DNA from: Microbotryum violaceum
Lineage: Eukaryota
Direction of reading: 5' to 3'
Assembly (NCBI GenBank): GCA_001244265.2
Contig: CDLV01000012.1
Location: 310,001-374,000 of the forward strand
DNA length: 64,000 bases
Below are positions 11,967 through 48,835 of the stretch, one piece after another; within the stretch, counting starts at the first letter, position 1; each line of letters starts with the position of its first letter. A program made the translations under genes and the position numbers. Below the pieces are notes generated by a model. The model saw only the letters and a program-made list of their open reading frames with translations, did no database searches and was not told where the DNA came from.

Positions 11967-12145
11967 ACTTGTCTGTGCAAATGCTGATGCTGCGGTGGCC
12001 CGAGTTTCTCTGAGCGCGTGTCGGCGTAATAGGGGCTACGGCAGCCTCACGACGCGATTGGCATAACACGGACGCAGTGCTTCCCACCAACTACCGAACT
12101 GCCCAACCAACCCACTAACTCACCTCTATGACCTCAGCGATCCTC

Positions 12146-13828
12146 ATTTTTCCTACACTTGTACTCCGAACGAATTCCTCACGGTGATACGAATCCCTTA
12201 CACCTCACTTCCCTTCGTAACGACCATGAGGAGCCAATACCGGATACTGTTAACTGTTCTTTGCGCTCGTAAAAGGACAGAATAGGAGACCCCCCTAACA
12301 CTCGCCTGTAAAAAATGTGGACGCCTTTATCGATCTGCGACATAGCAGAAGGATGGTGTTTATTTCCCGGCGGAATTTTTCGCCGGCTTGCCCGAGAAAA
12401 CTTACTCCTGTCCGATCCCGAACCCGAGCACGCCATACCAACAACCGATCACATCATCTGGCGGAAGTCACTTGGTTCCGACATTCAGGCACTTTTCCGG
12501 AATAAGGCCGTAGACGTTGCATGCGAAAGTGGTGGCCATTCCAATAGAATATGGAGTAGCATACCCCACTGGTGGAGGCGATGGTGGCAAGCTTGCACCA
12601 TCTACCCTCAGGAGCCGGGAGCCGAGGGGGAGGATGGAAAATTGGTGTAAACCCTGAAAGATGGGGGCATCAGCCCTAATCCCAGCGAGGCAATGGCCCG
12701 TATACAATATGGGTGTATGATATATGATATGTTATGGTGGTCCAGCGGATCTAGCGTTTGTTAGATTCTGTTTTTGAATAAGACTAGCTGGAATTTATGA
12801 CTTTAAACCTTTAAACACCTCTTCCAAGCCTCGCTCTTCCATCTCCTGCTCCCACTTGCTCTTCCACAATACGACTTCTCGCGCTCTGCAAGGGTCCCAA
12901 AGCCTTTCATCGAGAACAACTGCACACCGATCCGCAACACGTAGCCACTCCCGCACCGGTTCATCATCTCTAACCTTCCCGCTATTTCCGGGGTTGTGTA
13001 CTGGGTGTCGTTCTCGGGCCCGATGAGCTCGAAGTAATCTGTATCTAAAGCTTTGTACCTTGACTGGGGAGGATCCGATAGGCCCGTGGGGTACCCGACC
13101 TTGTTTGACTCGAAGAAAGCTGACTGGTCGTTGGGGCCAATCCCGGTCTCGGAAAGGTGTTCCAGGGGGTGGCCTCGGCCGTTTGCTTCGCTATGTCGCC
13201 GGAAACAGCGGGAAGGTTTGAGACGATGAGCCGGTGCGAGAGTGGCTGAGTGTTGCGGATCGGTGTACAGTCGTTCTCGATGACAGGCTTTGGGACCCTT
13301 GCAGAGCGCGAGAAGTCGTATTGTGGAAGAGCAAGTGGGAGCAGGAGATGGAAGAGCGAGGCTCGGAAGAGGTTTGACGTCTGCGGCCTTATTCCGGGAA
13401 AGTGCGTAAATGTCGGAAACCAGTCGCTTCCGCCTGATGACGTGATCGATTGTTTGGTATGGCGTGCTCGAGTTCGGGGTCGGACAGGGGTAAGTTTTCT
13501 CAGGCAAGTCCGCTAAAAGTTCCGCCGGGAAATAACTACCGGGCTTAGCAGCGCAGAATACGGGGTTAGGAGAGACAGAGGAGTGGGTGACAGGTCTCAG
13601 GTTTGACATTGGATGGGGAAGTTGGCATCCCTCAACAGATGGAATTGAAACTATTGTAGGTGTCGAGTAAGAGGGTTGCGTGGTAGTGTTAGGCAGAGTA
13701 TTGGGGCAGCAAAGGCGGGCGGGAAAATAAGTGTTCGAATAGGAGCTCCTAAAGTGTTCACGTTCTTCAGAGATGTAGTGGATTTGTATCACTGTGAGAT
13801 CCTTGGGAGTCTGAGTGTAGGAAAATAC
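12146..13828. repeat. Large degenerate inverted repeat (palindrome) with ~207-bp central spacer
   Basis: Reverse-complement matches: ~12815-12991 with 13199-13375, ~12360-12517 with 13377-13535, and ~12146-12205 with 13772-13828. The left arm is interrupted by an insertion at 12518-~12815. Confidence 0.9.
12518..12816 (+). mobile_element. 5'-truncated non-LTR retrotransposon 3' end inserted in the left palindrome arm
   Basis: Absent from the partner arm. Begins with HAKVVA/SNRIWS (frameshifted), resembling the WH...TARIWG terminus of the LINE at 26.8-26.9 kb. Carries the GGTGGTCCAGCG-hairpin-GACTAGCTGGAATT motif and ends in (CTTTAAAC)x2. Confidence 0.65.
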
Positions 13829-14180
13829 CTGGAAGAGGTGGTAATGCGACAAGATGCGGACAATATACCTATATTATCTCGTATGTCAGAGCTGTCAGGG
13901 GATGGACGTGGTATGCGAATCGAAAACGGGCCGACTGCGCCAACGGTGATCGCGGCACCTGCGATGCGGATGACGAGATAGCAGAGAGCACTGACCCTCC
14001 CACTTCCATGGCCTTTGAGAGGGAAAAGATGGTGGCTCAGTCCTTGCATCAATCCTAAAAGAGCCGCGGCTCACTCACACATTCGATCGCCAACAAGGAC
14101 TGGAATGACCTCGTCCCCGGTAATCTGGTTGAGCGGGACGTCTTTGACCGACATCACGAGTCGTGCGGTGCGGGATCAGC
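13820..14180 (-). pseudogene. Inverted partial duplicate of the neighbouring RTA1-like gene (end of intron 1 to exon 4, introns retained)
   Basis: Reverse complement aligns with 15333-15680, including the exons encoding GTRSFQSLLAI, MEVGG and YIVRILSHYH and the introns between them. Confidence 0.88.
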
Positions 14181-14452
14181 GACCTTGCATTGATCGTGGC
14201 GTGTGCTTGAATTGGTGGTGATTGATATGCATGATTCGGCCGGGGCGTCGATCATGTCCTCGAAGTGCTTGTCGAGGTGGACCTTCACCGCAAGTTGCGG
14301 TCCATCGTCACCACGGATTACGAGCCAGCGACAGGAACAGGACAACACCAAAAAGCGGTCTCTCAATTGTCGGTCTCCACGTCCGCATGCGTCGTACTTG
14401 GTCCAAAAAATAGTTCCCACACTGCCCGCTTTCGATAAATGGCACATGTAAC

Positions 14453-14527
14453 GGTGGTCCAACGAATCTAGCGTTTGCTAGATTCTGTCTTTGTACAAAA
14501 CTAGCTGGAATTTATGACTTGCAACTT
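14453..14527 (+). mobile_element. Second short copy of the LINE 3'-terminal motif
   Basis: Near-identical direct repeat of 12736-12803, with the perfect hairpin AATCTAGC-GTTT-GCTAGATT followed by ACTAGCTGGAATTTATGACTT. Confidence 0.65.
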
Positions 14528-15114
14528 AGGGATATACCCAGAGATGGTCTACGACGTTGAACCCATCCAGACCGAGGTCCTCCGTCAGCTGATCGAGCTT
14601 CGTTGAGGGATGGAGCTTATCTGCGCGTCGTCCCGGGTTCGTTCGTCGATTGCCGTTGGAGGTCGAAAAGGCTTGGGGCGCGGCTCCGATTTTGCGCAGG
14701 CGAAAAGTGTCTCACTCTGCTCGCAGAGTTGGCGTGGTAGTAGTGTGACGAATAGATAGCTCTAGTAGTGGATCGGAACATTGGAATACCTAGGCCTCAC
14801 TGCCCCACCCTGTTACCAACCTCATCCCCGACCACTTGCGAGAAATAGCGACTCGATTATCCAAGGCTTCGGTACTTGAGTGGGGCCACACGTCATCGAC
14901 CATCACTTGCCTCGACCGCGGCGGAGTTCCCACGCACCTCGCAGTCGGACGTTGGACGTTGCGGGAAACGGCTCGGTACGCGTCGCTTGCTCCAGTCGGC
15001 CGAGGTCGAATCGAGTTAGCATCCCATTGACTGCGACTTCGAGTGGACAGAAAACAGTCCGGTGACAACAACGTCCCCGACCAAGTCCCAGGCAACTCCT
15101 CCAAGTGACCAATC

Positions 15115-16709
15115 ATGTCGATCCCGCCGAATTACCATGGCCCGATCAACGCGAACCCGAGCAGCGGCGAAACGACCATCTCCATCTTTGGCTTCATACC
15201 ATCCCGCGCATTGGCCAGCATCGCCGCGATCGTGTTTGCGTTGGGTTTGTTGTGCCATGTTGTGTATCTGATCCGGTGCGTTTGCGAGGGCTGGATGTAC
15301 ACATGGTCGGGTAGGGCGTGCCAGAGCTGCCGAGCTGATCCCGAGCACCGCACGACTCGTGATCTCGGTCAACGACGTCCCGCCCGACCAGATTGCCGGG
15401 GACGAGGTCATTTCAGTCCTTGTTGGCGATTGGATGTGTAAGTGAGCCGCGGCTCTTTTAGGATTGATGCACGGACTGAGCTATCATCTTGTGCCTCCCA
15501 TAGGCCATGGAAGTGGGAGGGTCAGTGCTCTCCGCTGTATCTCGTCATCGGCCAAGACGGGCACACCGCATCGCAGTCCCCGCGATCACTGCCGCGCTCC
15601 GCGTACCACGTTCAACCTCTGACAGCTCTGACATACGATCATATAGGTATATTGTCCGCATTTTGGCGCATTACCACCCTTTTCTGGTATCGTTTTACGT
15701 CGCGCAATGTGAGCACTTCCGAAGCGCGCGTTCACGTATCGCCTCAACCAAGGTCACGTGAGCTGAACATCCGATCCGACTTGTCTGTCTCCAATGTCGC
15801 AGACTTTCTCATCGTTGTGGCCCCATGTTGTGAGCGAAAACACTTTAACTTCATTGACGTTAAGAACCTAAATCTTGCCGAGACTGACCAGTGAAACCCG
15901 CACCTCTACAGTCTTTAGTGGCGCTTTCGTGAGCTCGAGCACATGAAGGTATCGCGCGGTCCGGGTGCGCACCGTTCTTCTGACACGTTCATCGGCCTTC
16001 TTCCGCACAGTATCTTGCCCTAGGCTTGGCGATCAAACGGCTCCCTGTCACATTGGCCCATGGCCTACTTTCCTTCCCCCCCAAGATCTTTATCATCAGT
16101 ACGTTGAGCTCCGCTCGGCGCCAGTTTTCTCGGTAGAAGACGCTCACCATTTTCTCTCCACGCCCTTCCCCACGATCATCAGTCTTCATCATCGCGGATA
16201 TCGTTACAACCGCGATCCAAATCACCGGAGCCGCCTTGATCGGTGCCGCCGAATCCTCCCGCACGCCCGGTTCCGTCCCTACAGCCATCACCTCCGCGCA
16301 AGCGAACGACATCCTCCTCTCCGGTCTGGCGATCCAATCCGTCTCCTTCCTCGCCTTCATCTACATCCTCAGCCTCGTTGCCTACCGTTCGAACCAAGTT
16401 CGACCGCACGTCCTCCCGCCTCGTTTCTCCGCAGCTTTAATCATTTCCTCCCTCCTCGTCTTCCTCCGAACCGTCTTCCGTCTCGCCGAAGTAGCTCAAG
16501 GCGTTTTCGGGTTCGCCAGTACGCATGAAGTCCTTTTCGGGATCTTGGAATTTGCTCCCGTCGCTTTGGCGATGAGCATTTGGGCCGCGTTAAGTTTAGA
16601 CGAGTTGTTACCTCTTGCGAGGGCGAATCATGAGATTGAGAAGTGGGATGGGAAAAAGGCGAATTATGGAGGGATAGAGATCGTCAATACTGTCACGAGG
16701 GGAAGTTAG
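15115..16709 (+). CDS. RTA1: RTA1-like protein (lipid-translocating exporter family), many short exons
   Basis: FGFIPS..ASIAAIVF, MEVGGY, IVVAP, ADIVTTAIQITGAA, ILLSGLAIQ, LVFLRTVFRLAE and THEVLFGILE. Confidence 0.88.
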
Positions 16710-16956
16710 TATCTGCCTTTTTTCTTCTCCTTTTAAAGATGGTTACGGGTAGTTGGTTTGTTGAATGTTGGCGCCCACTGCGTGGAGAAAGGCGTGCTTG
16801 CGGTGACTGCGCAACGCGCCGATGAGTCCACTTCGCGTACATGTGTATGTAGATAATGAGATAATATGACATAAAAAATGAGAGCAGAGAGGTGATATCA
16901 TACGATCCAACACACACCGAACGCTCCGTTTACACACCCCAAGAGACAAATACAGC

Positions 16957-19000
16957 TCACCTTTTAAAGACCCTAACCTCAATCGTCCTCAACACGAAGT
17001 AAGCGACCAACGACAACCCGACCGACATCTCGAATCCTAAATCACCTCCAAAAACCGGTTCGACGGCTTTCGCGATCGGACCCGTATAATACGTTTGCGC
17101 CATCGCAGGCACGATCCCCCCGATCGCGATCGCGATAGCACCCACACAAGCGAATCCAGGTGGAAGTCGTTTCCAATCATTGAAGCTATCGAAATCGGGT
17201 TTTCCCAAAGGTCCTGAGGGCCTTCGGAACCATTCGAATTCAAGCAAAATAATGACGATGAAGAAAGCCGTCCAATACGATAAGATGGAAGCGAAGTTGG
17301 AGACGATCTCGGAGAAATGTTCCCTTCCTACGATGGAGGCGATCAAGTAGATGGCGGTGAAGAGGACGACGAAAAAGATACGAGGGATTTTGAGCAAAGG
17401 TGGGGCGAGCGATTGCATTGCGAGCGAGCCGGAATAGGTGTTCGGGGCGTTGGTGGCGATGGTGGAGAGACCGAGGAGGACGAGGAGGAACTTGCCGAAA
17501 CCTCCTAGGGGACCGAGGATCGCTCCGACGACGCCGCCCAGGGAATCGGATTCAAAGGCGGCGATGTAGGAAAGTTCCTGTAGGGTCATTAGTTGAAAAC
17601 CTCAGACTGGAGTGGATCATGATCATTACGCTGCTGCCGCTACTCACGGTGAGGGTTTGGAACGTTGCCGAGACGGTGCAGGTGAAGACGATGGGCAAGA
17701 AGGTACCGAAAAAGGTGAAGAAGAAGACTCGCCACTTGGGCGTATCGGCGGGTAGCTTGACATTGTCTGATCGATACGATCCACCAGATCATAAGTTTTC
17801 AACTCAACTGAAGCAAAAGTCAGTAGATACACGCTACTTACAATCTGCAGCGATCACACCCCAGCCCGAAGCGACCGAGAACATGATGCCCGCAAAGCTC
17901 AGAATGCCCGCACTCAACGACTTGCCCGTCGCCTGTTGCGCCGTCAATCGATTGACGTCATAACCACCTTTCGTTCCCAATCCAAGGATGATGCAGTAGA
18001 TGATGAAGCAGGCTATCCAGCAGTATCGTGCGAAACGGTGGACCCAGGCGAGGCCGAAGATGGAGAGGACGAAGACGACAGAGGAGACGACGACAATGCC
18101 GACGATGAGACTGAGGGAGTGGTTGATCGCGTGGAAAGCTTGGGCACCGGCAAGTGCGTTCGTCACCGAGTACTGTTGGGCAGCATAATTGAGGGTCAGA
18201 AAAGGAGGCCGGCATGCCGGAATTAGGGAAAACCTGTACTCACCGAAAGCTGGGTCAACACGTTCAAAAACGAGCAAATGAACGTCCCGGGAATACCGCC
18301 CGCGAACCTAAACAAAGCCATCGTCCTCAACCCACTTAACCCCAACGTCGCAACATAAGCCGTCGCCAAACACCCGACGACGGCCATGGTCCAAATCACT
18401 GCGAGCGAGGTGCGGAAGTCGAGGCCAAAGTATTCACTGCCGAGACCCCCGACCGCGAGAGAGGAGAAACTGAGGTTCACGCTCATCCAAAAGAAGAAAA
18501 TTTGGAGACCCGACTGGAGTAATTGAAATCGAAAAATCAGTGATTTTAATCTCTGTAAACTGCCTTCGACATGATCGCTGTCGAAAGGGGTTTATAGCGC
18601 CACCCGCGCTTGGCCGCCCTCGCGTGTGGTGGCACGCCTTGGGCCGGGACAGCGGCGGCCGACCGTCGTCGGACTGCGAAACTCACTTGAGCGATGCGTT
18701 CATCCTCCGGGACCCTGTCCAATCCACGAGCCTCGACACCTCGATCCGCAAGGTAGGTCATCACTTTGGCAAAAGGGCCATGTAATGCAACGACTGGTCA
18801 AACCGTACCCCATGATCAGCCTTCCTAAGCCTGGTTGAAGGGGTCAAGCGAGCGAGCTCGAAAAGGACTGAGGACTGACCTCGACCATGCGCGACGACGG
18901 CCTCGTCCGAGGAAGCATCCTTCGCAACGGGGATCGACCCCGTCTCGGCTCGGGAGAGGACGTTCTTCTCCTCTTCACCAGAATGGAACGAGTGGCTCAT
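16957..19000 (-). CDS. Purine-cytosine/vitamin permease (NCS1, Fcy2/Tpn1-like), multi-exon
   Basis: GVEARGLDRVPEDER, FFWMSVN, SGLRTM, SVASGW..AADY, NAPNTYS..L, NFASILSYW and MAQTYYTGPIA..GDLGFE. The exact 3' end is uncertain. Confidence 0.92.
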
Positions 19001-19376
19001 CTTTGTGAAGAGGTCGGAAAAGATGATGCGCCAAGATGGTGAGTGGGGACAGGAAGGGATCCACACCGTAATTCGGTAGCTCTAGCTTCAGGCCCGACTG
19101 AACAACTTTCTAGACCATGCCCGACTTTTACGATGATGGGTGCTAAAAATGGGATGAACGACTTGCGATAGGCTGCGCGCGCGGCACGACGAGATTGTGC
19201 GCCAAGCGGCCCGCGTGGTCCAATGCGGGGTAGCGCCGGGCCAATCCCGAGCCCGACGGGGTATGAGAGACCAGGCTTCACTCCTTTATCACCACTATCG
19301 CTGCAAACCTTAAGCTGAGAGGTAACACTCGTGATTGGTATGGATACGGCATGATATAGATTCGGGCAAGGAGGCT

Positions 19377-22197
19377 CTACTCGAAGATGGCTTGAATGCG
19401 AGCCTCGAGTTGATCCGCGTCGAGCTTGAGATACTTTTCAGGATCTAGGTCGCGAGAGTCAGTCCTCGGTCAGCCATCTTTCCACGAGCAATCGAGATAA
19501 AAGGGGTTTCTCCACCCTATCACTCACTCTTGGAGAAATCGCCATTCCTATGCTTCGCCAAGAACTTTGTATAAGTCGGCACGATCATCCTCTCGACCTC
19601 GCCCTTCAACCTCTCCTTCAACTCCTGTTCCCCTTCGTCCAACTTGGCAACAGCATGCAGATTCTCCACTTCTTGCAAACCGTCCCCGAAACGCAGGAAG
19701 CGATCTTTGGTTTGAGCCCTTTCGTTGCCTCCACCTCCACCTCCTTTGACGGCGGCTTTGATAGCCCCTGCTGCACCGGATTGCTCCAAGCCTGCGTCCA
19801 ACAAGGCTGACACGAGCGGGGACCAAATTTCCAGATACGAGGCCTTGGTCGTCCTCATCAACTTGTTCAACGCGTCCTCGCACGCTTCTCCCAATACATC
19901 CCCAATTTGTGACGACAAGACCTCCCTCCGGATGAACGAGATATTGTTGAGTAGGAAGATCGCCGAGATGCCCGATCGAGCTCTCAGTCCTTTGGCGCGT
20001 TGATCCAACGCAGCGAGCAGAGTCTGTAGAACATCGTTGAGGTACCGGGTCAAGAGGGATTGTTCTTCGTCGCCGTCGCGTGTCGACACGGGAATTTTGG
20101 GTCCGCCCCAGTTGCCTGGACCGAGCACGTTGAGGAAGCCTTCGACGACGGTTTGGTTGTCCGAAAGTTGACGCATAAAGTTGACGACCTAGGTTCAAGG
20201 GAACGGCAACGAGTCAGCATGCATTTTGATAAGACCGGTCGGGGAGCCTAGACTGACATTAAAAGTGACTGTGCCGACTCCAGCTCCTGATTCACTCGCG
20301 GAGATTCCTCGTGCTCCCCATTGCTGCGTCAAGACCATCACAGATCAGTCCCAGCCACTTCCATCTGTGGGCGGTCAGCTCCAATGCGCTCACCTTTGTC
20401 GTATCAATCATCGCCGGCAAACTAGTCAAACAAGTACCCCTGAACGCATGCAACAGCTCGCCCAACTCGTTGTCCTTCCTCGCGGCTTTGATCCGTACCC
20501 ACTCTTCGAACTCGGCGATCTGTTCTTGCAGTTCCGAGAAGGTCGAAAAGGCGATGGGGACAAGCGCATCGAGCGCTTTCTTGACGACGCCATTGAGCTG
20601 GGTTCCTGTTGTGTAGAAGAGGGAGAGGGAAGGGGGGAGAATGTTGGAGTAGATCTCGCGTCGGGTCGACGGTGGGACATTGGCAAAGACGGTCGAGAGG
20701 AGCGCGTATTCGGACTGGCGGAGGGGAAGACAAAGAGAAGCTTCAGTGCTCATGAGGAGGGCAACGTGCGAGGCTTCGCTCACCTTGAGCAACCCAAACA
20801 TGACATCCAAGAACCTGCCCAAGCTCCTCCTTATATCGCTCGCCGAGAGCATGGGTGTCGCATCGGTCAACACATCCTTGGACGCGTTCGCCAAAGCGGC
20901 TTCGACGAAGGAGGCGCGTTCTTGACCATAGGCGATCTGCAAGTCCTCGAAGGCGCGTGGCCCGACTTCGGGTAGAGCTCGGATGTAGGCGATGAGAGGT
21001 AGTGCCGAATCGACAAAGGTCGGGGTGAGGGTCGGGAAGGGTTTGCCTGTACAGGAGTGATGACTTGAATCAGTGAGCTTCTCATAGGGTGTCCGGCAAA
21101 TACTTTGGATCCCGGCCTTCGCTCGCATACCTTTGTCGTACAACGATCCGGCATCAATCTGGGGACTGGTTTCGTGTACCCATTGCCTGAAGACAGCGGC
21201 GAGCTGTTGAGCTCCCGATTCTACCAGGCCCGTCTGCGATAAAGAAGAGTCTGGATTAGTGCCCGTGTTGGGAACGAGAGTGACTCGCTGGTTGCTCACC
21301 ATTTGACCGAGCGCGCCGTTCCCCTTTGCATCCGTTTTGCGCACGGCTTCGGTCGCGATGGTGAGACGGTCGATCGCGTCCAGGTAAGGCTTGAGGTCGC
21401 TTGGATCCGGTCTAGTGGGGAGATGCAGGTCGTAAAAGGGCTATGAGTGATCGTGAGGTGGTGCCTTGTTGAGCCGGGGGTTGGACGACGAACCCGACTG
21501 AGATGAGCTCCTGCTCGTTCGTGACGAGGTCGTGGTGGCCCAACAGTCCTTGGATCGACTTGAGCGTGCTCTCGAGGTCTGTGGAAGACAGCCCATAGGG
21601 TCCGGTCAGTTACCGGGTTGAGAGCCGAGACATGCTGGGCTACCAAGGGCGTGCCCGGCAGGTTGACCGAGGGGGTGCCCCACATCCCATATGCAGCTCC
21701 AGGTGGTCGTCAGCCCAGCTTGGGCCGGCCTAGGCGTCGGCAATGCACTCACTCTTGGACACCCTCGTCAATCTACCGGTCTGCTTGTGGATTGGAACCA
21801 AGCTCTTTTCCAATCGTGCGAGGCTGGGATGGCCGAGACAGAACGAGTAGGTCAGCCTGCGCGCTTCCTCTTCAGTCGGAGTGCAAGGCCGGCGTACGCA
21901 CCGATCATCAAAGTCGCCGAGCCTCGAGGTCATCTTGCCCGTGATACGTTTGGATTTGGCCAGCGACTGATTCAACAAGGTGAGATCGGCATTGCTCTGA
22001 ACTCACACCGAGGCGGGGGCACCAGTCGGCGGCGCGTGTCAGGTGTCAGTTGGGTGAGAGGGGGGCAAGGGGGCCAGGGGGGAATACACCGATCACAGAC
22101 CACCGACCACCGACCACAGACGACGTACCTGCTCCAGAGCTATCGAGGCCGAGTTGGACGTCGAAGCGGTCGGTTGAAATCGGGTGTACATGGCCAT
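19377..22197 (-). CDS. EXO70: Exocyst complex subunit Exo70, multi-exon
   Basis: N-terminal coiled coil (LLNQSLAKSKRITGKMTSRLGDFDDR..LEKSLVPIH), AIFLLNNISFI, KDRFLRF, IVPTYTKF and DPEKYLKLD at the C-terminus. Confidence 0.92.
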
Positions 22198-22443
22198 CGT
22201 GAGCGAAAGCAGCGGTGGTGTGACCTAGTGGGGATCAGACTCGCCCGGCAAAGTGATCCAACTCGAGCTGATCCTGCTCGAGTTGGAGAGGTGGGCGGAG
22301 GAGGGCGGAGGAGAGCGGAGTGAACATCGCTGTCGCACGCGTCAGTCGCGCTCGGACCTCTCTCTCTCCTCTTTGCACCCACTCGGGCTGCTTTCCCTTC
22401 TAGGCTCTCTCCGGCTCACCGCTTCGACCCGAGTCTGGTCGAG

Positions 22444-23457
22444 ATGCCCTCCTCCCGTATCCTCTTTCCCGCCCGCATCCCTTCGCGTCAGCGCCTCCTC
22501 AACCCATCGCACCCCTGTCCTGGCTCCTGGCGGCTCTCCCCGCCCGGCTCTGCCCTGCCAACCCAACACCGATCCACCAGTTCGAAATCGTCCTCCTCCT
22601 CGCAATGGCTATCCCGCCAGCGACGGGACCCCTTTGTCCGCTCACGCACCAACACCCTCCTCGACCCGTCCTCCTCGTCGGCGCAATCCTACGTCGCTCG
22701 ATCCGCTTTCAAACTACTCGAATTGCACCAGTCTTCGATAGGTGGCGGGAGGAGACCTTTGGTGAGAAAGGGGATGACGATCGTGGATCTGGGTGCGAGT
22801 CCGGGCGGTTGGATACAGGCGTGTAGGACTCTGGTCGTTAGTAGTCGATCGTCCGGTCGAGCGACCAGTGGTGCCCAAGCTCCTCGAACCCGGATCATAG
22901 GTCTCGACCTGCTCCCCTTGGACCGCTCTCTCGATTCGGACCCCGACCTCGAATTCCTCCAAGGCGATTTCCTCGACCCCTACATCCAAGCCCAACTGTC
23001 CGAGCTGCTCGGACAAGACCATGTCGATCTCGTGCTTTCGGACATGTTGAACAACCAATCCGGGTCGACGTTGAGGGATTCGCAGAGCTCAATCGATCTC
23101 TGTCGTTCGGCTTGGGAATTCGCGAGAAAGCATTTGAGCGTTGACAAAGTACGGCAAACGGAAAAAGAAGGGGACGCGGCAAAATCTTGGCCGAGTATTC
23201 AGTTGGTGATCAAGTGCCTTCAGTCGGATTTGGCCATCGAGTTGGGCAACGAGTTGAGGGGTGATTTCCAAAAGGTCAGGTGGGAGAAACCCAAGAGTTC
23301 GAGGGCGGACAGTCGGGAGGGGTATTGGGTTTGTTCGGGGTTCAAAGGACGAGGCGGTGCGGGTGCAGGAAAGGAGTCCAAGGAGGGGAAAGGAAAAACG
23401 GGGGCCGGAAAAGTCGACGAAGGAGTAGAAGAGAGTAGTGATGGGCTCTTTTTTTGA
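22444..23457 (+). CDS. MRM2: FtsJ/RlmE-family rRNA 2'-O-methyltransferase, probably mitochondrial
   Basis: WLSRQRRDPFV, YVARSAFKLLEL, DLGASPGGW, VDLVLSDM and KPKSSRADSREGY. Basic/Ser-rich N-terminal presequence. Single exon. Confidence 0.92.
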   Translation: MPSSRILFPARIPSRQRLLNPSHPCPGSWRLSPPGSALPTQHRSTSSKSSSSSQWLSRQRRDPFVRSRTNTLLDPSSSSAQSYVARSAFKLLELHQSSIGGGRRPLVRKGMTIVDLGASPGGWIQACRTLVVSSRSSGRATSGAQAPRTRIIGLDLLPLDRSLDSDPDLEFLQGDFLDPYIQAQLSELLGQDHVDLVLSDMLNNQSGSTLRDSQSSIDLCRSAWEFARKHLSVDKVRQTEKEGDAAKSWPSIQLVIKCLQSDLAIELGNELRGDFQKVRWEKPKSSRADSREGYWVCSGFKGRGGAGAGKESKEGKGKTGAGKVDEGVEESSDGLFF

Positions 23458-23702
23458 CTGCAACCATTCAAAGGAAATTGTGAAAAATCGCTCCCCCTTC
23501 TGGCAAACTCGAAGCGGTCCGAGCTCAAACTCGCCTTGCGCGCTGAACGACCGAATGATGACGACGCGTCACCGATCGGCTCCCTCTCTCTCTTGCTCAT
23601 CTGCCCGCTCCCGCACCTCCACCCGCACCTCTTTCTCGCCGCACCGCACGCGCTCTTCCTCCTTCTTATCTCTTCTGCCAACCACCCCTGCTGCCCTGCC
23701 CC

Positions 23703-25500
23703 ATGGCGCCCAAGATGGACGTGGATCAATCGGATGCGAGCGTGTACCTCACCCGACAACTGAGCTCGCCTTCGCTGCCCCACGAGCTGAAGCCGTTCTA
23801 CCAGGCATTCGAGAGGTTCTACAACAACAAGTAAGTCAACTGGAGATGACTTGCAGCTGTGAGGTGCGATGTGGGCTGCCTCACTTCTCACTTGGCTAGC
23901 CGGTGTGAACTGGCGGGTTGTGGGGAGCTGCTCCGTCCATTCCCGTCGGCTCACCCTAATCCCCCCCTTCTTCTCACCTTCCCCTCAGGCTCTGGTACCA
24001 ACTCACAAGTACGATCGAAAACTTTCTCCAAGTCCCCTCGTCGGGACCGTACCAGATCGAGCTATGGGAATCATTCGTCTCGACTTTCGCGCAGAGGATC
24101 AACCAGCTCAAGTTGATCACCATTGGGATTAGCACGGCGAGGCAGTTCAGTGGTCAGTTCTTGCGATATCGTAAATGATTTGTGGGGGACAGGCGTCGTC
24201 GAGCGTCCGAAGTTGGTGCTGCTGAAGGAGGCGAATCGAGCTGACGTATCCCCTCTCCCTCCCCCTCTCTTCCCCACCCGACTCTACGCACGACGTATTT
24301 CAGACGGCACCCAAGGCCTCGACTTTCTGACCAGGTTGGCCGGAAAAGTCGACACCCCCGAAACGCGCGAGGCGTACGTCCTCGCGACCATGGAAGCGGC
24401 CTACTTCAAGCTCTTGCTCGGCGACAATGAAGGCACCAAGAGCGCGATCGATACTTGCGCCAAAGTGCTGGACGCGATGGACAGTGTTGATTTGGTGGTG
24501 CATGCGAGTTATTATAGGGTTGCGGGGGATTATTACAAGGTAGTTCTGTGGTCCGGGTGAGCACGCAAGGTGAACCGTGATATGACCGAGCTGACAACCC
24601 CATCTCGACACTTCGCTCAGGCCAAGGCCGAATACGCAGACTATTACAAGAACTCGTTGCTCTACCTCGCGTGCGTCACCGTCGACAAGGACCTCACTCT
24701 ACCGGAACGAGTACAACGCGCCCACGATCTCGCCATCTCGGCCCTCTTGGGCAAGATTTACAACTTTGGTGAACTGGTCCGTCTTGGTCATGTCGGAGAG
24801 ATGGTCGGGGGACTAGGTACTGATGATCGATCGTTGTCTGCGTACATACAGCTCATGCACCCAATCCTCGATTCACTGAATGGGACTGAGTACGCGCCGA
24901 TCAAGAACCTCTTGTTCGCTTTCAACGCCGGTGACATTGGTCAATTCGAGAGCCTGTCCCATGCGATTGCCCAAGAGGTGAGTTTCATTCATCCCCTATT
25001 GGGCCTAGAGACAAGCCCAACTGATCTTACATCTTTACCCTCGCTTCCCTGTAGCCCATCCTGCAAGAGAATTACAGCACCTTGCGCCAAAAGATTTGTT
25101 TGATGGCCCTGATCGAAGCCGTGTTCCGAAGACCAACGTCCGAGAGGGTCTTGCCTTTCAGCGTCATCGCCGCCGATACACGGTTACCGATCGACGAGGT
25201 CGAGCATTTGGTCATGAAGGCTTTGTCGTAAGTTTGAAACCGTCTGTACCGAATGGGTGGGCGGGAGGATGTTCAGCTAAGTAAGGAAGATTACCCCTTC
25301 ACAACGCTCACAGACTCAAACTCATCCGAGGCACCCTGGACCAAGTATCTTCCACGACGTCCATCTCATGGGTCCAACCGCGCGTGTTGGACAAAGTACA
25401 AATTGCTGGATTGAGGGATCGATTGGCGGGGTGGACGGATCAGGTCACGAGTGTGGGGGAGTTCACGCAGTCGCAGGCGCCGGAATTGTTTGCTCAGTAG
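23703..25500 (+). CDS. RPN9: 26S proteasome lid subunit Rpn9 (PSMD13, PCI domain), multi-exon
   Basis: KLWYQLT, INQLKL, YYKNSLLYLAC, IYNFGELLMHPIL, LRQKICLMALIE, VEHLVMKALS and SWVQPRVLD. Confidence 0.96.
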
Positions 25501-27390
25501 GGGCGCACGGGGTTCGGATGGGCTGGTGGTGTATGAGATGACAAATGAAACGAAGCTGCATTCACTTGATAGGCTCCGTTCTTTGAGATGTTCGTCAAAA
25601 TGCTTTCCTGGGCGGTGAGACTCCCGAGCCAAGTTTCATTCTCATTCTCGAGGTACGTCTGCCTCGCAGGGCAGATACTCAAACTGATCCGTGTTCTTCA
25701 GTGAGTCGGTCGAGATCCAGGGCCTCTCGGTTCATGGTAGGCAACGTGTACTCCACCCGAACGATCAGGTGATCTGCTGATGGCCCCTGTTGCCTACGGT
25801 CCAGATTCCTTCTTCGTTCATGGTGCTGCGGTCCCCCAATGCCGAGCCCGCCCCGTTTCGGGTTGATTCGCCTCTCTCGTGGTCTCTGGTGTCTTGAGAG
25901 AATGACCTATCTTTATCCCGCTTTGTCGCTTACGCGGTGAGGGGCATGCTGTAGACGCAGCAACCCCTGTCTGCGCCTTTCCGCCAGCTCGTCACCCAGG
26001 CCCGGTGGCACCCCAAGCCCCAAGGAACTGACACCTAGCCTCGTTCTAGTATGCTCTCACTTTGGCCACGCATCCCAACCGCAGTCTGGTATACCCGTCT
26101 CCTCCATCAGCATCTCCATATGGAGCGGACTCGAGGCAGTTCGGGGCGATTCCCAGGTCGACCGGAGCCCTCGTGCAGGTTCCTGAACGGCCTGAACCAT
26201 CGGATCACCCAGAGCCGGGAGCCCATATCTTTGCTTGTGGTGCGCTAGACTACTCTTGCTGCCATCATATGCATATTTGAAGCCGTTTCTTTGACTGCGA
26301 CAAAGAGAGAAAGCATTGTAATGACATGTGATGACATCGTAAACGCTATATAGAGCCCGCTGTTTCAGGGGTTCGATACGCTGCTCCACAAGTGTAGTGC
26401 TTGTTAAGACTTGTCGCTTCGGCGGATACAACTTTTTGGACCACGGAAAATCGGCTGACCAAAGTGTTGGACAATCCCATGCGCTATAAGAAGGTCAGAA
26501 AGGTGCAAAAACAGGTCGATGGGACCGGGGTTCCCTATCCGTGGTACAGGTAAAGTTGGGTTCTTTTGTACCCAAACTAGGGAGAAATGAGAATTGACTT
26601 TCCAGCTAGCTCTATAGCTACAAATGGAGGCGACTCTACTTAAATGAGAATAAGAATTTGAATTCCAGCTGGTCTACAATGAGACGACCCTTATCGGGCG
26701 CTGGACCACATTAACTGGGCTATCGCCTCTGACCTGACCTACGACTTCCAACCGCTCCCCTTACCCTGTTCGATATTGCAACCTACACTGCTCCATTGAG
26801 CTGCACCCTGTCCATCCCTTCTTCCTTGACTCTCACTATCTTCTACGGATTTCCGCCCACGCCTTTTGGCGATCACCCCATATCCTTGCTGTCCCTTTAA
26901 GCAGTTCATGACAGTGCCATGTCTGCAGTAATTTCGCCCTCATGCGTTCTGGAATGGCCTCCATGGCTAACGCCGGTACCGGAGTAAAGCTCACACCATA
27001 CCACCATCCGTGTTGTGATACCAAATCTTGTGCGAATCGGACCAATTTCTCCCGTTCCCCTTCGCCCACGTTGTCAGCTGTAGCCTTGATAAAACCTATG
27101 GTTGCGTTTTTCTGATTGGAGTTGTACTCGGATTCTCACCGATTTTGGGCATCTGAGAAAAACGTGCTCCTCCGTTCGAACTCCGATCCCTTTGCGCTGG
27201 TATACCGTGGGCAAGAGGGATCAGTCCGATTTCGCTGCTCTTCACTTCCGCGCCGCTTCATTCTTGTTGTTAGTGGCAGTGATGAGCTTCGAAGTTGCCA
27301 TTGCACCAGTGCAGCATACGACGATCTCGCTTTTTTGTAGGGGTAAATTGCTGGTTTCATCCCTGTTAACTGTAATAGGCGAATTTTCTT

Positions 27391-28590
27391 CTATGTTGTG
27401 TCGGCTAATTTTCCAAATTGAACCTGTGTCAGCCTTTTCTCCACTATCTCTCCAATGTTGTTTTCGATCCATTCGGTATCGTCCTTTATGACCCAGCTTG
27501 AAAGTCCATGTGTTGGTGGTCGAAGCACAAAATGCATATCCTTGTGGGCACGATTCGCTTCCGCGTCGGCCCTTCGGTTCAGTATTGACCGTTCATCCTG
27601 TCCCGTCGTGTGGGCTTTCACATGGTGTACAGGAAGTATTGACGTGGCCAACACCAACCTTCGGAGCCACGAGTGATACGAGAGACTGGGTATTTTCCTC
27701 GATATCTCCCGCTCTGGGTGCGCCTGCCACTCCTTGATGAGGCGCGCCGTTCCCAGATGGTCCGTCATGATAGTGATCGGTGCCCTGTCTGACGTCATGT
27801 ATGGTGCAGCAATCACCGCCACAATGAGCGCGGTAACTTCCGCTTGCTGAATTGTTGCACGATACGGGAGAAGTAACCTAAGGTCCACTGGGCCCACCAC
27901 TGCTGCTGCCGTGGATGTCCGACAGGTCCCCCACTTTATGACGGAGCCATCCGTTGCCCATACGCTCTGCCGGATCTTCTGTGTCGGGTCGAGTCCCTGT
28001 GCTCTGATCTGGGCTTCCACGTTTGCCATGATGTCGTTCTCCTGTTGGCTACATCGAGCCTGCCGACTCTGACCGTCGTTCGTTCCCCGGCCGGAAGTCT
28101 CCAAGGACAGGAGCTCTTTCCTTGCTGGCCGTGCGATCAGCTCAAGTTGTGTTCGGATTTGACGGCTTTCTCCGTCGATCAGGTTCATCCTGCGGCCCAG
28201 GTCTGAGAGGGTTCGTGTGTTTGCGGTTTTGAGTGCTTGTACTGCGGAGTTGATGGCCCGACCTTGATGGCCTCTGGTATACTTGACTAGTAAATGTGCC
28301 AAGCTGACGTCCCCGGACCGCAGACTGATGTCGTCGGTGTTCGCTATTTCTAGTGAATGACGGGCGTCCCGAATCGCAAAGGCGTTTGCCCAGTTTGGCG
28401 CAATTGTCCTTGTCAAGTATTCCTTTTTATTTTTTTCTGCCCCCCAAAGTTTAAGCAGGCTTCTCCCCTTTGTTTTCTTTCTCGCAGGGTTTCTTGGCCA
28501 GGTCGCCAGTGGCATCGATTTCACTCCTGATTCGCATTTGTTCGGCCCGCAGTGCAGGTCGCTGAGCGTGATTTGAGCCATCGCTCGCAT
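27391..28590 (-). pseudogene. LINE fragment containing the RNase H domain
   Basis: WATDGSV, QQAEVTAL, MTDH, HHVKAH and NRRADAEA give the D-E-D-(H)-D RNase HI pattern. Confidence 0.88.
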
Positions 28591-29057
28591 GGTGGTTCGA
28601 GATCCCGTAGTACTCCTGTTACGATCATGTTGGCATTAAGCCTCCAGATGCTTGAAAGTCCCATGCCGAATTCTGCTATCGGCATACATAGGAGTTTAGC
28701 GCTTGCCGTAAGGGGCAGGTTGAAGTACTGCTGGACTTGATTCGCGAGCAAGTTGTCAAGTTTCTCGGCTTGGTCCATGCTGACTGGGCTAAGACTCAGC
28801 TTTCCCCGAAACCACCGCTTGTTCTAGATATCTCAGCACCGCCGTCAGTGGCAAACGTTGTGTTGGCCTTGATGGAATCCCCGAACAGATGGAAATTATT
28901 TTGATACTTTCAAAGTGAGCGTTTTCATAGTCCAGTGAGGTCCGTAGAAATGTCAGCCCCTGAGCAACTCGGACATCTCTGGGTCCGTGGGGTGTTTCGA
29001 TTGTCATTTGGGCATGAGGACTCGGCCTTGGGACTTTCCTCTGCATTTGTTCCGTGT

Positions 29058-30010
29058 CTACGAGGTCGGTTGGTATTCCCCTACGATGAATATCTTTGTC
29101 TTTTCGCCCCAGTCCGTCTGAGCTCCATATGCCTCCTGAAACGTTTCCATAAGTAGCGCCCTTCGGCTAAGTTCTTCTGGCGAGCGCGCAAAAATCATTG
29201 TGTCGTCCATAACAGACACCATTGTGAGGTTAACCTCTGCGTTGTCGCCTTCGTGATGTATGCAACCTTTTCTGGCGTTTCCTGACTTCAGAATGAGCGG
29301 CGTGGTCGGGTTTTCATCTGTGGCTTTATTGTCCTGCTCTGTCTCGCTTAGGTAATATGCCCCCATTGCCATGCTGAGTGCAAATTTTAGGGGGTTTGGC
29401 GGGTCACCCTGCTTCATTTGTCCGTCGGCCGTAAATGGTTCCGTTGGCCCATAAGGGGACGAAAAATCGGCCTTGTGCTAGGCAGGCGTGATCGAAATCC
29501 TCCACTGCTTTGGGCAGCCCAAAGAAGTTGTAAGCATCATATCCCGCTTCTGCTCGTAGTAAATCGAAGCCTTTCTTTTGATTTCGTACAAGGGCGTAGA
29601 TAATTTCATCGTGGCGGTATGCCCATGCCTGTACTTGTGAGAGGTAGCTTGTGAGATCGCGTTGTGGGGTCCCGCTTTGTACTGCGGTCTGGGTTTCTGG
29701 AATGAGGTGGCGCCTCATTGCATACTCCTGCCCCAGCGTGGTGAACCAAGAGGTCGCTAAGATCGCCAGTATAGGTCCGAAACATACCGCTCGATAATTG
29801 TTGAGTTCTGTATACAGGCCTCGATTCTTATGCATCGGGAGGATATAGTGATCTTTTAACTTATCAAAATGATTGGTTGTCAAAACGAAGTTGAGCAGTT
29901 TCCGGACAATCTCTTAAGTCACTCTCCGCTAGTTCTGCCACTGCAGAACCCACTTTTCCAACCCATCCGGCCCTGGTGACGGACTTTGGTTTCCTTTGTG
30001 AAGGAGTTTG
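29058..30010 (-). pseudogene. LINE reverse transcriptase fragments
   Basis: KGNQSPSPGPDGLEKW, then in-frame stops at ~29914-29932, LPMHK..NYRAVC, NQKKGFD, a frameshift, KQGDP and SVMDDT. Confidence 0.88.
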
Positions 30011-30099
30011 TGCAGATCATTCTTTTTTAGTATCTGTGGCCATGTGAATGGCGTTTCACGGGCCTCAGCAAGAAAACTTTCTGCTGCGCGGCTGTGCAT

Positions 30100-32598
30100 T
30101 CACGGTCGTTCCGGCGGGATCCCTTCCGCGTCCTTCTGGAACAAGTTCTCGAAGTACGCTTTTGTCTCTGCCTTTACGGCCCCCGATTCGCTCGCCATTG
30201 CTCCATCTACTGGAATTGCGTACGGCTCAATCGGTTCTGACCAGTGCAGAAGGGTTCTCTTTACTGGCCCTCCGTGAAGCATACTTGCCAGTTTTGCCCC
30301 ATCTTTCTTTTTCGCCGCTTCGCGGAGCTCCTTTCGTTTTAGAAACCCTTCTTCTTTATTTAGGCGTGCGCGCTCCTTTTCAGCTACGGCTAGAACGTTG
30401 ATGTGGGTCTCGAGGGCGATTCTATCCAACCTAGTTAGGAGTCGGGGAAGCCACTTGTGTACTCCTTCCGCTTGCATCAGCCCGTCAAGATAATTGTTCT
30501 TGGGTGCATGTATCAACCGGTTGAGCTGTTTCCCGTCGCCCAAGACATGGCGGTACTGTGCCGACCCCATCCATTCCTTCTGTTTTACCGGCCCTCTTGT
30601 TCCGAAAACCTTTCTGGCAGTAGTGTTGATCAGCTCTATGAATTCTTCGTACACGCTGTCCCATTCCTCCGTGGATTGAATTTCCTTTCCGTTTAGAGAT
30701 AGGTATGGTTGAAGGATGTCGTTCGTCCGAAGGCTGCTGGAGATTGTGGCTCTGAAGAGGGCTTTACTCGCATCTCCTTTCCTCGCCAGTCGGACGCGCT
30801 TAGGGCCTGCATTGTTCACCTGGGCAGCCGGTGGTTTACATCCTTCGAAGGCGATGAGAACTACTATCGGCTTATGGTCTGAGCCGGTTGGCGTTCCTCC
30901 CCTAATCGTTTCTATATCGATATACCCTGGTGCGACTGAACTGGCTGCGCGATCCAGGAGCGCTTTTGTTTTGTGCGCCATGGATTGGTGCGTCCAGTCT
31001 TTGGTTACCGACATTCCTGCTTTCGCATTCTATGAATCTGTTGCCTCCATGTCTCGTAAGAACCGCGAGTATCGTAAATTAGCTTTGTTCATTGTGTAGG
31101 TTGTTGCATCAGACTCGTGGACGCCAAGAGTAGCATTAGTGTCGCGCAACAGGATCCAGTTGGTGATCGATCCGTTCCTCAGATTATTCGTTACTTCTGT
31201 CCAGAACAGGTCCAGTGCCGACTCTCCTCCCGTCGTCTGATGCTCGAAATCCAAATGGGGGCAGTATGCGGCTAGTATCCGGACCTTCTCACTGGGGCCC
31301 CTTTCTCTGCTCAAGAGAATGTCAGCTATCACGACTCGTCCGGCAAGTGGTCCTTCGGCAAACATTTTGTGCTGTATGACCGGTATACCCTTCCGAACCA
31401 AGAGCAACACTCCATATTTTGCCGATGCACCCCCTTGTGCTCTCTCAACTGGCAGAGAGTTTGTCTGAAACGCTAGGTAGCCTTGGGTGTTAAGGAGTCG
31501 CTGCGTGTTGATTGGCTCTTTGAGCTCCTGTACAGTTAGGACGTCTGGTTTCTGCGTGTCGAGCAACTGCTGGATGCAGTTCGCTTTGATTGCACTCGTG
31601 CCATTCATGTTCGCCGAAAGGAATTTAAGAGGAAAAATTCCGATTGCAGCCGCGGCTGGGAGGTTTGACAGGAGTAGTATGAGGGCTAAAGGGACTGCTC
31701 GGGTAGGCTGGCTAGCTATGAGGGCCGTAAATACGAGGAATTCAATACAAGTTTTGAGTATGGGCTGGTTGAGATCGCGATGTTGGTTTTTAACCTCAGT
31801 AGTTGGTAGGTCCGCTTGGCAGATGTACCTCACTCTTCTACCTCCATGGTGCTGTCCGTACTGTTGGTTATTTTGGCCTGCTGACATCGAAAGTTTATGA
31901 GCATCGCTCTCGCTACGTATCAGTACAGCGGTGGTGTTAAATAAACCGACCAAGGTAGATCGTACTCGGCCCAGTTGTGTGTCGGTACTACTCCTTTTTA
32001 GACCGGTGCGCGGCGCTCGGCGTCCTGTCGGAGACGGGCTTGCAGGCGATGGGCTTTCAGGCATGGCCAGTGTACTTGCCACAGCGGGGTCCGTGGTTCT
32101 CAATTCGGTCAATGTCGGGGGTGATCGGCCGTTGCCCGTACTGACGGCCCGCAACATCGTTATCTGTCCGGCACTTGCTTGTATGGTCGATGTCCAGCTC
32201 GTGTCTAGTCCGCTGGGCTCGTTGGTGGGCTGTAGCAGTGTCTGACGGACTTTGGCGGCTCTTTGGTCGACGATGCTTTGGAGGTCCTTTTCTGCCTTCT
32301 CCAGCTGCGCCCGCGCTTTGCTCTCCATGACCACGGCTCGCTGAAATTTTGCAGTCAGGTACTCCTTCTCGTGTGCGGGAAGGTTAGGTCGCTCCAATGT
32401 AGCTGGCACGTCATCGATGGCGGCTTCTGCTTGCTCGGCACGTGACGTGAAAAGCTCGATTTGTAAGAGTTGTCCGCGCTCTTGAATATTGGAGTCCATC
32501 ATGACATCAGACGCGCCATGCTGGAAGGCACACTGACACAGCGGCAGAGACGCCGTTCGAACGTTCCTCTGACAATCCAGCTTGGGTGGCGGCCGCAC
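30100..32598 (-). pseudogene. LINE N-terminal coiled coil, hydrophobic segment and APE endonuclease fragments
   Basis: The 522-aa ORF carries FLSANMNG/QELK/YGVLLL/AYCP/DTNA. The 304-aa ORF carries the terminal APE motif SDHKPI. Confidence 0.85.
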
Positions 32599-34239
32599 CG
32601 GTGAAGTCCTGCATTTTGAAAGTTGCCATTGCGTTCAATTTTGTTGTTGTGTTGAGTTGGGTAGGGATTTGGTTGAAGGTAATTGGATGGGCTGGGGGAT
32701 CAGTGAAATGGCAAAGGGAGAGGAGCGCGGCGCGGCGAATCAGGCGGTGGCATGATCTCTTTTGTTTTCTTGTGCATTGTTTGTAGATTGATCGGGAAAC
32801 CGCAGCACTGGGTAGTGGGTCATGAGCATCGGTTCGCTTGTCCGTTTGCCGAGGTGGAGATTGTCGTTCGTGGGAATGGGCGAAGCGCGAGAGTCCATGC
32901 CTTTTGAAGAGTCCGTGCCTTTGGATAGCGCGTGCCACGCTGCTCCTATAGTCAGGGTGTTGAAACGTTGGTCTCTTGGGGTCCTGTTTGTCAAAAGTTG
33001 TTTGGGGTGCCACATTCCTTCTCTGGGTTGAGTGAACTTGAGGGGATCAGGTCTGAAAGAGGTTGTGTTCCTGACACTATTTCCAAGTTTGGGTGTGGCT
33101 ACCTTACACAGGCCATAATTTACGCCGAGGTATGATTTCCCGCGTCGATAATGAGGAAAAAATCGTAGTTCCTCTATCCGTAGGTGTATGTTGCGTATGA
33201 TGATGAGTATGGTGCAGGTTAGTCTGAAGTGTTTCCCGATCTTATTTCCGCAGGCCGCAGTGCTTTCTTTGTGACACTGAGCAAGGCCTTTGACTGTTAA
33301 CTTGAATTTGTTTTGTTGGGCATCACGTGACGTTAGTGAGCTTAGTGAGCCGGGTGGGCCGGCCCTGGTGGGGTCCAACGGTTCCAGCCAACGTAATGTC
33401 ATAGTTTCCTGGGCAGTGGGGAGGGTGATGTTTGCATGCGGATTCCGTCTTTAGATACTCCGTGTCACTGTTTGGGTGCTTGAAGTCTGTGTTGGGTCTA
33501 GGGTTTGTGCGGTATTTGTCCGATGCTACTAACTGTGACGAGCGCTGCTTGTGCGGCGTTCCGATTAGGCTTGGCGGAATTGCTGGGTGCTTGCAGCTTG
33601 GTTGGGTGATCCTGTTGTATTCAGAAACCAGGTTGTGGTTTTTTTCTTTGGGGTTCAGATAGATGTGCCATTTTTTAAAGTGGTTTTGTATAGATATTTG
33701 TGTGTTTTATTCGAGCGTCGTCTGGGCTGCATTGGCCTTAGGAGGACGTCGGTTGGTTTTGGGACGATGGTTCTCGCACATACAACGCTGGGGTCCATAG
33801 GACCTGTCGCAGATGACGATTGATAGAAACATTTTCCCTTGCATGGCATGTGGTGACTACCGGAGATCCAGATGGGCTTGGCTAATGGCCGTACAAAGGA
33901 TTCCAGTAGTTCACAGCTCTCCCCTCCTCCTCTTCTTCCTTCCCTTCCTCCTCTGTCGGTCCTATAGTGTCGTGATTTGGTCAATATAGTGCTTCTTGTG
34001 GTGCTGTGTTGTTGAAGTTGATAGTGGCGTAGTTTGTTGGCCGCTAGTCCAGTGTGGTGATGGGTTGAGGGTCGAGCTCGTTCCGAGTTGAGTGACGGTT
34101 CGCGGCTGCGGGCCGATACCGCTTGAAAGCGGGTGGTGTAGACGAATAGGTCGCAAGCGAGCCAGATCAGGTGGAACAACTGTACAGTAAACATCAAAGG
34201 GTAAAGAGCGTAAGAGTGTAACGTATGGGGTATGAATGA

Positions 34240-47994: not shown

Positions 47995-48607
47995 TCCCGA
48001 TTTTGATGTTCGCATGGACATTACTTCCTTCGACATCCTGTCGAGTTATCACCTACGATTTTTGCTCGTTTCGATTCTCTTGTTTGTATGACCATTAATA
48101 ATTAGGCATCTGCGGAGGAAATGGCAGTCATTGCTTCGAGTCAACCCGCCGCAGGAATGGGCCACATACATGCGAGCATGGTCCAATTGCTCGTAAGCAA
48201 ACATTGCATGACACCGATTCCGACTCGGGCGAACCAAGATAATCGGTGCCGCCCGCTCCGGGAGCTCCGAATGACAGGAGGTTTGACGTTTCTCGAAAGG
48301 AAAACGAGTTGGGAATATCCTGGCGCAAGCCTTTGAACCTGGAAGTGAAAGAAAGATGCCGTGTTATGCTGTGCAGTTTTTTTTTTTCCGCGTGCCTCCA
48401 ACTGCGTCGCTAGTCCTTTGCTGCCGTCGACTGGTCCGCCGACGCGTACGCTCTGGACGCGATAGTCCTCGCTTTGCCTCATGCCTTTCTCCGATTCCGT
48501 TCTATCTTGACTATCCGCGTCCCAATGACCGAACTTTAAAGCAACAACCATGATCGTAGCCGACATCAACGACCTAGTCCTCCGATGTACAACGTTTTCA
48601 TTCAGTT

Positions 48608-48835
48608 ACATTAGTGACCAAATATTGGACTTAGTACATTAGTGACCAAGTATTGGACTTAGTGACATTAGTGACCAAATATTGGCCTTAGTGACATTAG
48701 TGACCAAATATTGGACTTAGTGACTTTAGTGACAGGCGAAAACCTGGTGACATAAGTGACAATAATAAGTGACCGAGGGTCCGACTTTTGTCACCTATTA
48801 GTGACAGGGCCAAAACAATTAGTGACCCAGCCCTA
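48608..48835. repeat. 28-29-bp tandem array (x4 plus partial) with dispersed AGTGAC motifs, ending in a hAT-like terminus. Probable solo DNA-transposon end
   Basis: Unit ACATTAGTGACCAAATATTGGACTTAGT(G). The right end reads TAGGGCTGGGTCACTAA on the minus strand. Confidence 0.7.

Follow-up and report, generated by a model that had tools for sequence, protein, structure and literature searches.

A covarying three-way-junction RNA at the 3' ends of basidiomycete LINEs, a candidate recognition signal for reverse transcription

We analysed a window of 64,000 nucleotides (nt) from the genome of Microbotryum violaceum (assembly GCA_001244265.2, contig CDLV01000012.1, positions 310,001 to 374,000, forward strand), in which a first-pass annotation had noticed three loci with two common boxes around a variable hairpin, and had read them as a structured RNA motif shared by the 3' ends of divergent long interspersed nuclear elements (LINEs). 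Both boxes are present as described: GTGGTCCARCG at 12737 (+), 14454 (+) and 26709 (-), and ACYAGCTGGAATT at 12783 (+), 14500 (+) and 26673 (-). Searched singly with mismatches allowed, neither is in excess in the window (5 matches against 2.8 in shuffles, and 4 against 1.9, respectively). As a paired pattern, they gave 32 exact matches in the 33-Mb genome, against none for a reversed control, and these matches split into two LINE families, F1 and F2. Each of the three sites (12736, 14453 and 26709) is indeed a LINE 3' end, but the first two have 86% identity over 80 nt and both belong to F1, so the window holds two LINE families and not three divergent ones. The 3' box had been given as GACCA or GACUA; the GACTA form occurs in 46 of 55 F1 and F2 copies, and GACCA in only 2.

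All intact F1 and F2 copies fold as a three-way junction (Table 1). It consists of stem P1 (TCCAGC/GCTGGA), the variable P2, and stem P3 (GTCT(T)/(A)AGAC), which sits between the variable hairpin and the 3' box and had been overlooked. The linkers have 0-1, 1 and 2 bases, and 3' of the junction a tail unit of 5-9 nt is repeated about twice. Two overlapping pairings had been proposed. The pairing of TCCAGC with GCTGGA stands, as P1; that of TGGTC with GACYA, a would-be pseudoknot, was rejected. In the relatives described below, 57.9% of its cells pair and 463 of 500 shuffles do as well; it fails because GAC is the 3' strand of P3. Copy 1 folds with -19.9 kcal/mol (z -2.4, matched by 2 of 200 shuffles), and its minimum-energy and centroid structures agree. 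Copy 3 folds with -16.6 kcal/mol (z -1.7, matched by 12 of 200 shuffles); its two-base linker is CA, where 16 of 17 F2 copies have TA. The decayed copy 2 has a z of -0.7 and a centroid that retains P2 alone, and its P2 has Watson-Crick pairs at positions of G-U in the young F1 copies. At 12738-12768, the start of P2 in F1 resembles the start of P1, and the covariance model of the relatives reads this P2 as a hairpin of the P1 kind (E 0.35); an internal duplication may lie behind this. The stretch directly behind copy 3, at 26634-26583 (-), resembles by eye a second, degenerate F2 end with P3 region, 3' box and tail, and would be a fourth site that was absent from the first list.

Table 1. LINE-derived features of the window and the parts of the three junction copies
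Feature	Position	Strand	Details
Old scrambled F1-related remnant	12067..14527		74-91% identity; blastn and tblastn of F1 against the window
Young 5'-truncated F1 copy (~299 bp): last codons, 3' untranslated region (UTR), junction, tail	12519..12816	+	91% identity to F1 8258-8551
Three-way junction, copy 1 (F1)	12741..12792	+	P1 12741-12746 with 12787-12792
Arms of copy 1		+	P2 12747-12768; one-base linker 12769; P3 12770-12784; linker TA 12785-12786
F1 tail, to the element end	12793..12816	+	Short spacer and TTTAAAC-type unit, ~2 times
Three-way junction, copy 2 (old F1 3' end), decayed	14458..14509	+	One P1 pair and one P3 pair broken
F2 tail	26643..26663	-	Spacer and TTCTCA-type unit, ~2 times
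Three-way junction, copy 3 (F2)	26664..26705	-	P1 26705-26700 with 26669-26664
Arms of copy 3		-	P2 26699-26687; linker 26686; P3 26685-26672; linker 26671-26670
Broken F2 coding region	26836..32634	-	Pfam; tblastn with F1 proteins
F2 stop	26836-26838	-	130 nt upstream of P1
F2 domains		-	APE endonuclease ~30985-31632; reverse transcriptase region ~28599-30204; RNase H ~27547-27966; zinc finger

F1 and F2 each encode an apurinic/apyrimidinic-type (APE) endonuclease, a divergent reverse transcriptase, RNase H and a zinc finger. Pfam matches are PF03372 and PF00075 in the F2 coding region of the window, and zf-RVT in F1; the RVT_1 match is weak and lies on P0005, an 83% identical protein, and the best PDB matches are to L1 ORF2p (E 0.07-0.2). 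Endonuclease and reverse transcriptase follow in one frame order and no long terminal repeats (LTRs) are present, which identifies both families as non-LTR retrotransposons. The large F2 element covers about 26643-33890 on the minus strand, with a 5' extent of at least about 33890 as judged from other copies, and the longest F1 copy (about 8.5 kb) lies outside the window elsewhere in the genome. DNA searches gave at least 41 genome matches for F1, counted with the young window copy, and at least 42 for F2; copy counts come from DNA and pattern searches and leave more divergent copies uncounted. F1 and F2 proteins have 51% identity in the first part of the reverse transcriptase and 33% in the C-terminal part. 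Their 3' UTRs are not alignable with each other: F1 has a long hairpin and a TTTAAAC-type tail unit, F2 a short hairpin and a TTCTCA-type unit. No third family emerged from protein searches.

The nearest named protein is from Microbotryum saponariae (83% identity). The reverse transcriptase region is matched by 530 cluster representatives, many of them single frames of 2100-2300 residues, and among 20 representatives checked the 12 with species names are all from basidiomycetes. The Inkcap clade is not known outside basidiomycetes, and was reportedly treated as a clade of fungal non-LTR retrotransposons by Novikova in 2009. The relatives found here are likewise basidiomycete proteins, and F1 and F2 may belong to Inkcap, which is named as a fungal clade in PMC4427930 and to which a mushroom LINE is assigned in PMC9674265. 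Related copies were also seen in contigs from other runs.

Among 38 F1 and 17 F2 copies, the 3' ends are fixed and the 5' truncations scattered. Alignments end a median of 22 nt beyond P1 in F1 and 21 nt in F2, and 29 of the 38 F1 copies start in the fold or no more than 100 nt from P1, but they share no single start site; the copy starts listed (+1, +1, +2, +3, +6, +9, +12, +14, +20) show no pile-up. The ends lack poly(A), and in one copy a target duplication of 15 nt overlaps with the tail. SINE-like passengers (SINE, short interspersed nuclear element) had also been suggested, but no shared upstream head was found among the 38 F1 copies or among 17 of at least 42 F2 matches. Upstream flanks of truncated copies match one another only together with matching downstream flanks, or in short unrelated pieces, which points to insertions into other repeats. 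Copy 1 itself was rejected as a SINE: it is a truncated F1, and longer copies extend into the coding region. The impression of F1 as a 300-bp SINE with a fixed 5' end was an artefact of comparison with the truncated window copy. A Helitron end, a tyrosine-recombinase retroelement and a miniature inverted-repeat transposable element were ruled out by domain content and truncation pattern.

The young F1 copy is inserted into the older F1 remnant, and no clear target-site duplication is seen. In this remnant, pieces of the 5' part on both strands are joined to its own 3' end, and the joint at 14436/14444 is unique among 35 matches. Long inverted repeats of F1 5'-region sequence (12355-12517 with 13377-13540, and 12817-12991 with 13199-13373) form an inverted duplication inside the old remnant, the left arm of which is broken by copy 1. 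A further inverted repeat of about 350 bp (13825-14171 with 15345-15690, 86-90%) is not F1-derived and has copy 2 inside. Short F1 and F2 copies were also seen within other repeated elements, partly of the same family (L001, L005, L133; L006, L016), and at about 1290-1600 of L014 an F2 stub has inverted pieces of its own 3' end on either side, an arrangement that resembles the outcome of a fold-back or twin-priming event.

We then turned to relatives selected by protein. We aligned 30 C-terminal proteins and searched metagenomes at the protein level, so that the motif played no part in the selection; 121 metagenomic stretches matched, 90 were confirmed, and the best 80 were kept as loci. Loci with a complete C-terminus and at least 150 nt downstream were taken as eligible (n=60). 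A descriptor search by itself yielded wrong folds and overlooked variants, and anchors with a covariance model were used instead. The nearest named proteins of these relatives are from mushroom-forming fungi (35-78% identity, 38 rows checked). Most protein-selected loci carry the three-way architecture downstream of the stop codon, in the order 6-bp P1, G, P2 (AGG/CCU at its base, free length), NA, P3, GUA, P1' and tandem tail. The relatives' conserved linker bases are a single A before P3 and GUA before P1', where F1 and F2 have C or U, and UA. No relatives were found in viral contigs, by protein or by pattern. Prokaryotic genomes gave one pattern match, in a long bacterial open reading frame (ORF) and with P3 broken (13.5 bits), which was taken as chance.

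Pairing in the relatives is far above control levels. In 38 non-redundant rows, 95.3% of 509 cells pair, a level reached by none of 500 shuffles (slid controls, 25-48%), and by a loose criterion 35 rows close as a junction, although the arms of two of these look different by eye. Two-sided change is found in 9 of the 14 pairs. Since related rows share changes, coincident changes were counted on the protein tree, which gave 8 coincident two-sided changes over 7 pairs, compared with a null mean of 1.6 and a maximum of 7 in 20,000 draws, or 1.14 per true pair against 0.29 per non-partner pair. With F1 and F2 included, 11 coincident changes over 6 pairs were counted. Compensatory changes are found in both P1 and P3. 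G-U cells outnumber C-A cells by 16 to 1, which identifies the folded strand as the sense strand; the mean energy is -15.9 in sense and -12.4 in antisense.

The covariance model matched 56 of the 80 loci, one match each and all on the sense strand. It matched 52 of the 60 eligible loci, and 14 of the 22 outside its training set, and P1 lies 21-195 nt downstream of the stop. This part of the first-pass annotation, a conserved structured RNA element at the 3' ends of a fungal LINE clade, is supported. In 42 of 52 loci the end of the tail lies 17-27 nt beyond P1 (13 of 43 control stretches), with repeat units that vary; these counts exclude L054 and L055, where the anchor score passed but element end and model match are absent. 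The stems are retained while the C-terminal proteins drop to 16-31% identity between this genome and the relatives. These LINEs carry a real, clade-wide, covarying RNA junction at their 3' ends. In one subclade, an extra conserved hairpin-like stretch lies just after the stop and before the junction; a strict pattern finds it in 9 of the 80 loci (L062, L063, L077, L079, L080, L085, L090, L102, L104).

A37, A55 and G56 are invariant in all 38 rows of the relatives. Such bases among three short stems could belong to a small self-cleaving ribozyme, either of a new class or of a reduced one, whose layout would recall a type III hammerhead without most of its core. This is very unlikely, as no Rfam ribozyme matches even at E 10, only 3-5 junction bases are unpaired, and F1 and F2 have a different base or none at A37 and G53; moreover, copies end about 20 nt beyond the fold, and 5' ends lack a single pile-up site. 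Catalysis by the junction is unlikely, and a ribozyme-like version of the 3'-processing role once considered for this motif is not supported, as a catalytic core is absent. The hammerhead consensus has a CUGANGA and GAAA core and a cleavage triplet, whereas the junction linkers are G, NA and GUA, and Rfam gives no match. LINE ribozymes are known, but at 5' ends (PMC8501958). Two other folds were tried and rejected. Twister-sister-like motifs combine a conserved CA cleavage site with an internal loop that has 5 and 6 bases (PMC11620745), and the junction columns show no such loop. In k-junctions there are tandem sheared G:A and A:G pairs with a loop on the bulged strand (PMC10573300); here, column 36 is G in 17 of 38 rows and no loop lies between P1 and G9.

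In our view, a stringent-type LINE clade that spans the basidiomycetes probably has this compact three-way-junction RNA as its 3' cis signal, bound by the element's protein for target-primed reverse transcription. Compensatory change in a 3' structure and a short tandem-repeat tail are marks of stringent-type LINEs, and both are present here. What is conserved is the shape, some linker bases and the spacing from the end, while loops, P2 and the tail unit are free, which is the pattern of a protein-binding handle that positions the tail. We infer protein binding, coaxial stacking and a role in priming. In the transcript, P1 would be stacked on P2, and P3 would project from the junction, with the linkers short and conserved. 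The element's protein would bind the shape of the junction, keeping it about 20-25 nt upstream of the RNA end; the unpaired tandem-repeat tail would enter the reverse-transcriptase site, where a few of its bases would pair with the DNA end that the endonuclease has cut. Copying would often halt early, leaving many stubs of 55-300 bp. The main rival role is that the junction sets or protects the RNA 3' end, as a termination or cleavage signal, an exonuclease block or a host-factor site, instead of binding the reverse transcriptase. The constant distance to the end fits this role equally, and since poly(A) is missing, the RNA end must be either set or tolerated in some way. However, the best-studied LINEs with a structure and a short tandem tail use it for ORF2 recognition (PMC4176376, PMC3747384), and we regard end definition in place of recognition as rather unlikely; the two roles are compatible with each other.

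Several results weigh against the recognition reading. Eight of the 60 eligible loci were unmatched, five with remnants by eye and three with nothing. RNAalifold on an automatic alignment gave P1 only, the AGG/CCU base of P2 is nearly invariant and therefore shows almost no covariation, and for 2 of the 6 variable pairs two-sided change is confined to one deep branch. Stretches of at least 8 nt common to both flanks were found in only 3 of 46 copies. The relatives' covariance model finds none of the three window copies as a whole match, because they have no AGG/CCU base, linker A or G of GUA. An anchor model built from the relatives alone ranks these copies second, third and tenth among sites of the window, at scores that random windows also reach; with a one-base deletion it places the terminal motif first in five of five long F1 and F2 elements, but this deletion was chosen post hoc, and without it the ranks are 1, 1, 4, 4 and 1. 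As the model misses the window copies, the link to the relatives rests on position, shared P1 and P3 letters and the anchor model. Given the equal place in homologous elements, the near-identical P3 and the compensated P1, the window motif is likely homologous to the relatives' junction, less firmly than the structure itself is established.

The missed window copies, together with P1 and P3 letters that are identical in F1 and F2 while the remaining UTRs are not alignable, would also fit an old 3'-end swap, by which the two families came to have their boxes in common, with a fold merely convergent with the mushroom-type junction. We find this very unlikely, since the motif has an equal place in homologous elements and the top rank within each element, and F2 differs from the commonest relative type by two single-base gaps, in P3 and a linker, with compensated pairs in P1. 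P2 and the tail units are wholly different in F1 and F2, which disfavours a recent swap.

Similar signals are known from UnaL2 (eel) and from ZfL2-1 and ZfL2-2 (zebrafish) of the stringent L2 clade, where 3' stem-loops bound by ORF2 stand just before a short tandem-repeat tail (PMC4176376), with conserved stems and family-specific loops (PMC4176376, PMC3747384). These are single stem-loops with ORF2 binding established by experiment, whereas the present structure, a candidate for such binding, is a three-way junction with conserved linkers in an RNase H-bearing, fungal clade. The recognition core of R2Bm, the 43-nt R2 tag, likewise has short stems and a few conserved linker adenosines near the RNA end (PMC10499050); the R2Bm core is formed by far-apart parts of a 248-nt UTR, whereas the junction is contiguous, with 42-60 nt. 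R2 also uses a restriction-like endonuclease and a fixed target, in contrast to the APE endonuclease of F1 and F2. Compensatory 3' changes are taken as a sign of stringent recognition in some plant L1s and their SINEs and in ascomycete Tad1-clade LINE/SINE pairs as well, but those systems have one hairpin and partner SINEs (PMC3747384), and no SINE was found among the copies compared here.

Measured against these systems, the junction of F1, F2 and their relatives is probably a novel form of stringent-LINE 3' recognition signal. That the element might be undescribed, as first suggested, agrees with Rfam, which gave no window hits at gathering score and only weak unrelated ones up to E 10. No published description of this junction was found at the level of titles and abstract openings; Novikova 2009 and Repbase entries could mention such ends. 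Neither transposons nor basidiomycetes are treated in the main text of a fungal motif survey (PMC5640933).

The junction is a small, self-contained, covariation-supported candidate signal for a little-studied fungal clade. To our knowledge, how a LINE protein chooses its own RNA is understood in detail for few clades (R2, L2, SART1). Natural variants of the junction separate shape (P1 and P3 pairing, linker A, UA) from family-specific parts (P2, loops, tail unit). It also offers an annotation handle for elements whose copies are mostly non-coding stubs, and might serve gene-insertion tools as an RNA tag. A further and more doubtful idea, which we put forward tentatively, is that the junction is a portable tag of 45-60 nt, read mainly by shape, across smut-like to mushroom-forming basidiomycetes, and that families cross-mobilise. 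Since the tag persisted as protein identity dropped below 30%, families that differ in P2 and tails could mobilise one another; if this were true, any RNA bearing tag and tail would be inserted by these RNase H-bearing proteins, and the junction would be a multi-branched 3' recognition module, in contrast to the single hairpins known from other APE-type LINEs.

Elsewhere in the window lie a tandem array of about 4 copies of a 28-29-nt unit (48571-48733) and several host genes, which encode an SH3 and WW protein (4313-7645, -), Exo70 (20295-21440, -), an FtsJ methyltransferase (22324-23454, +) and GAS2 (61622-63688, +).

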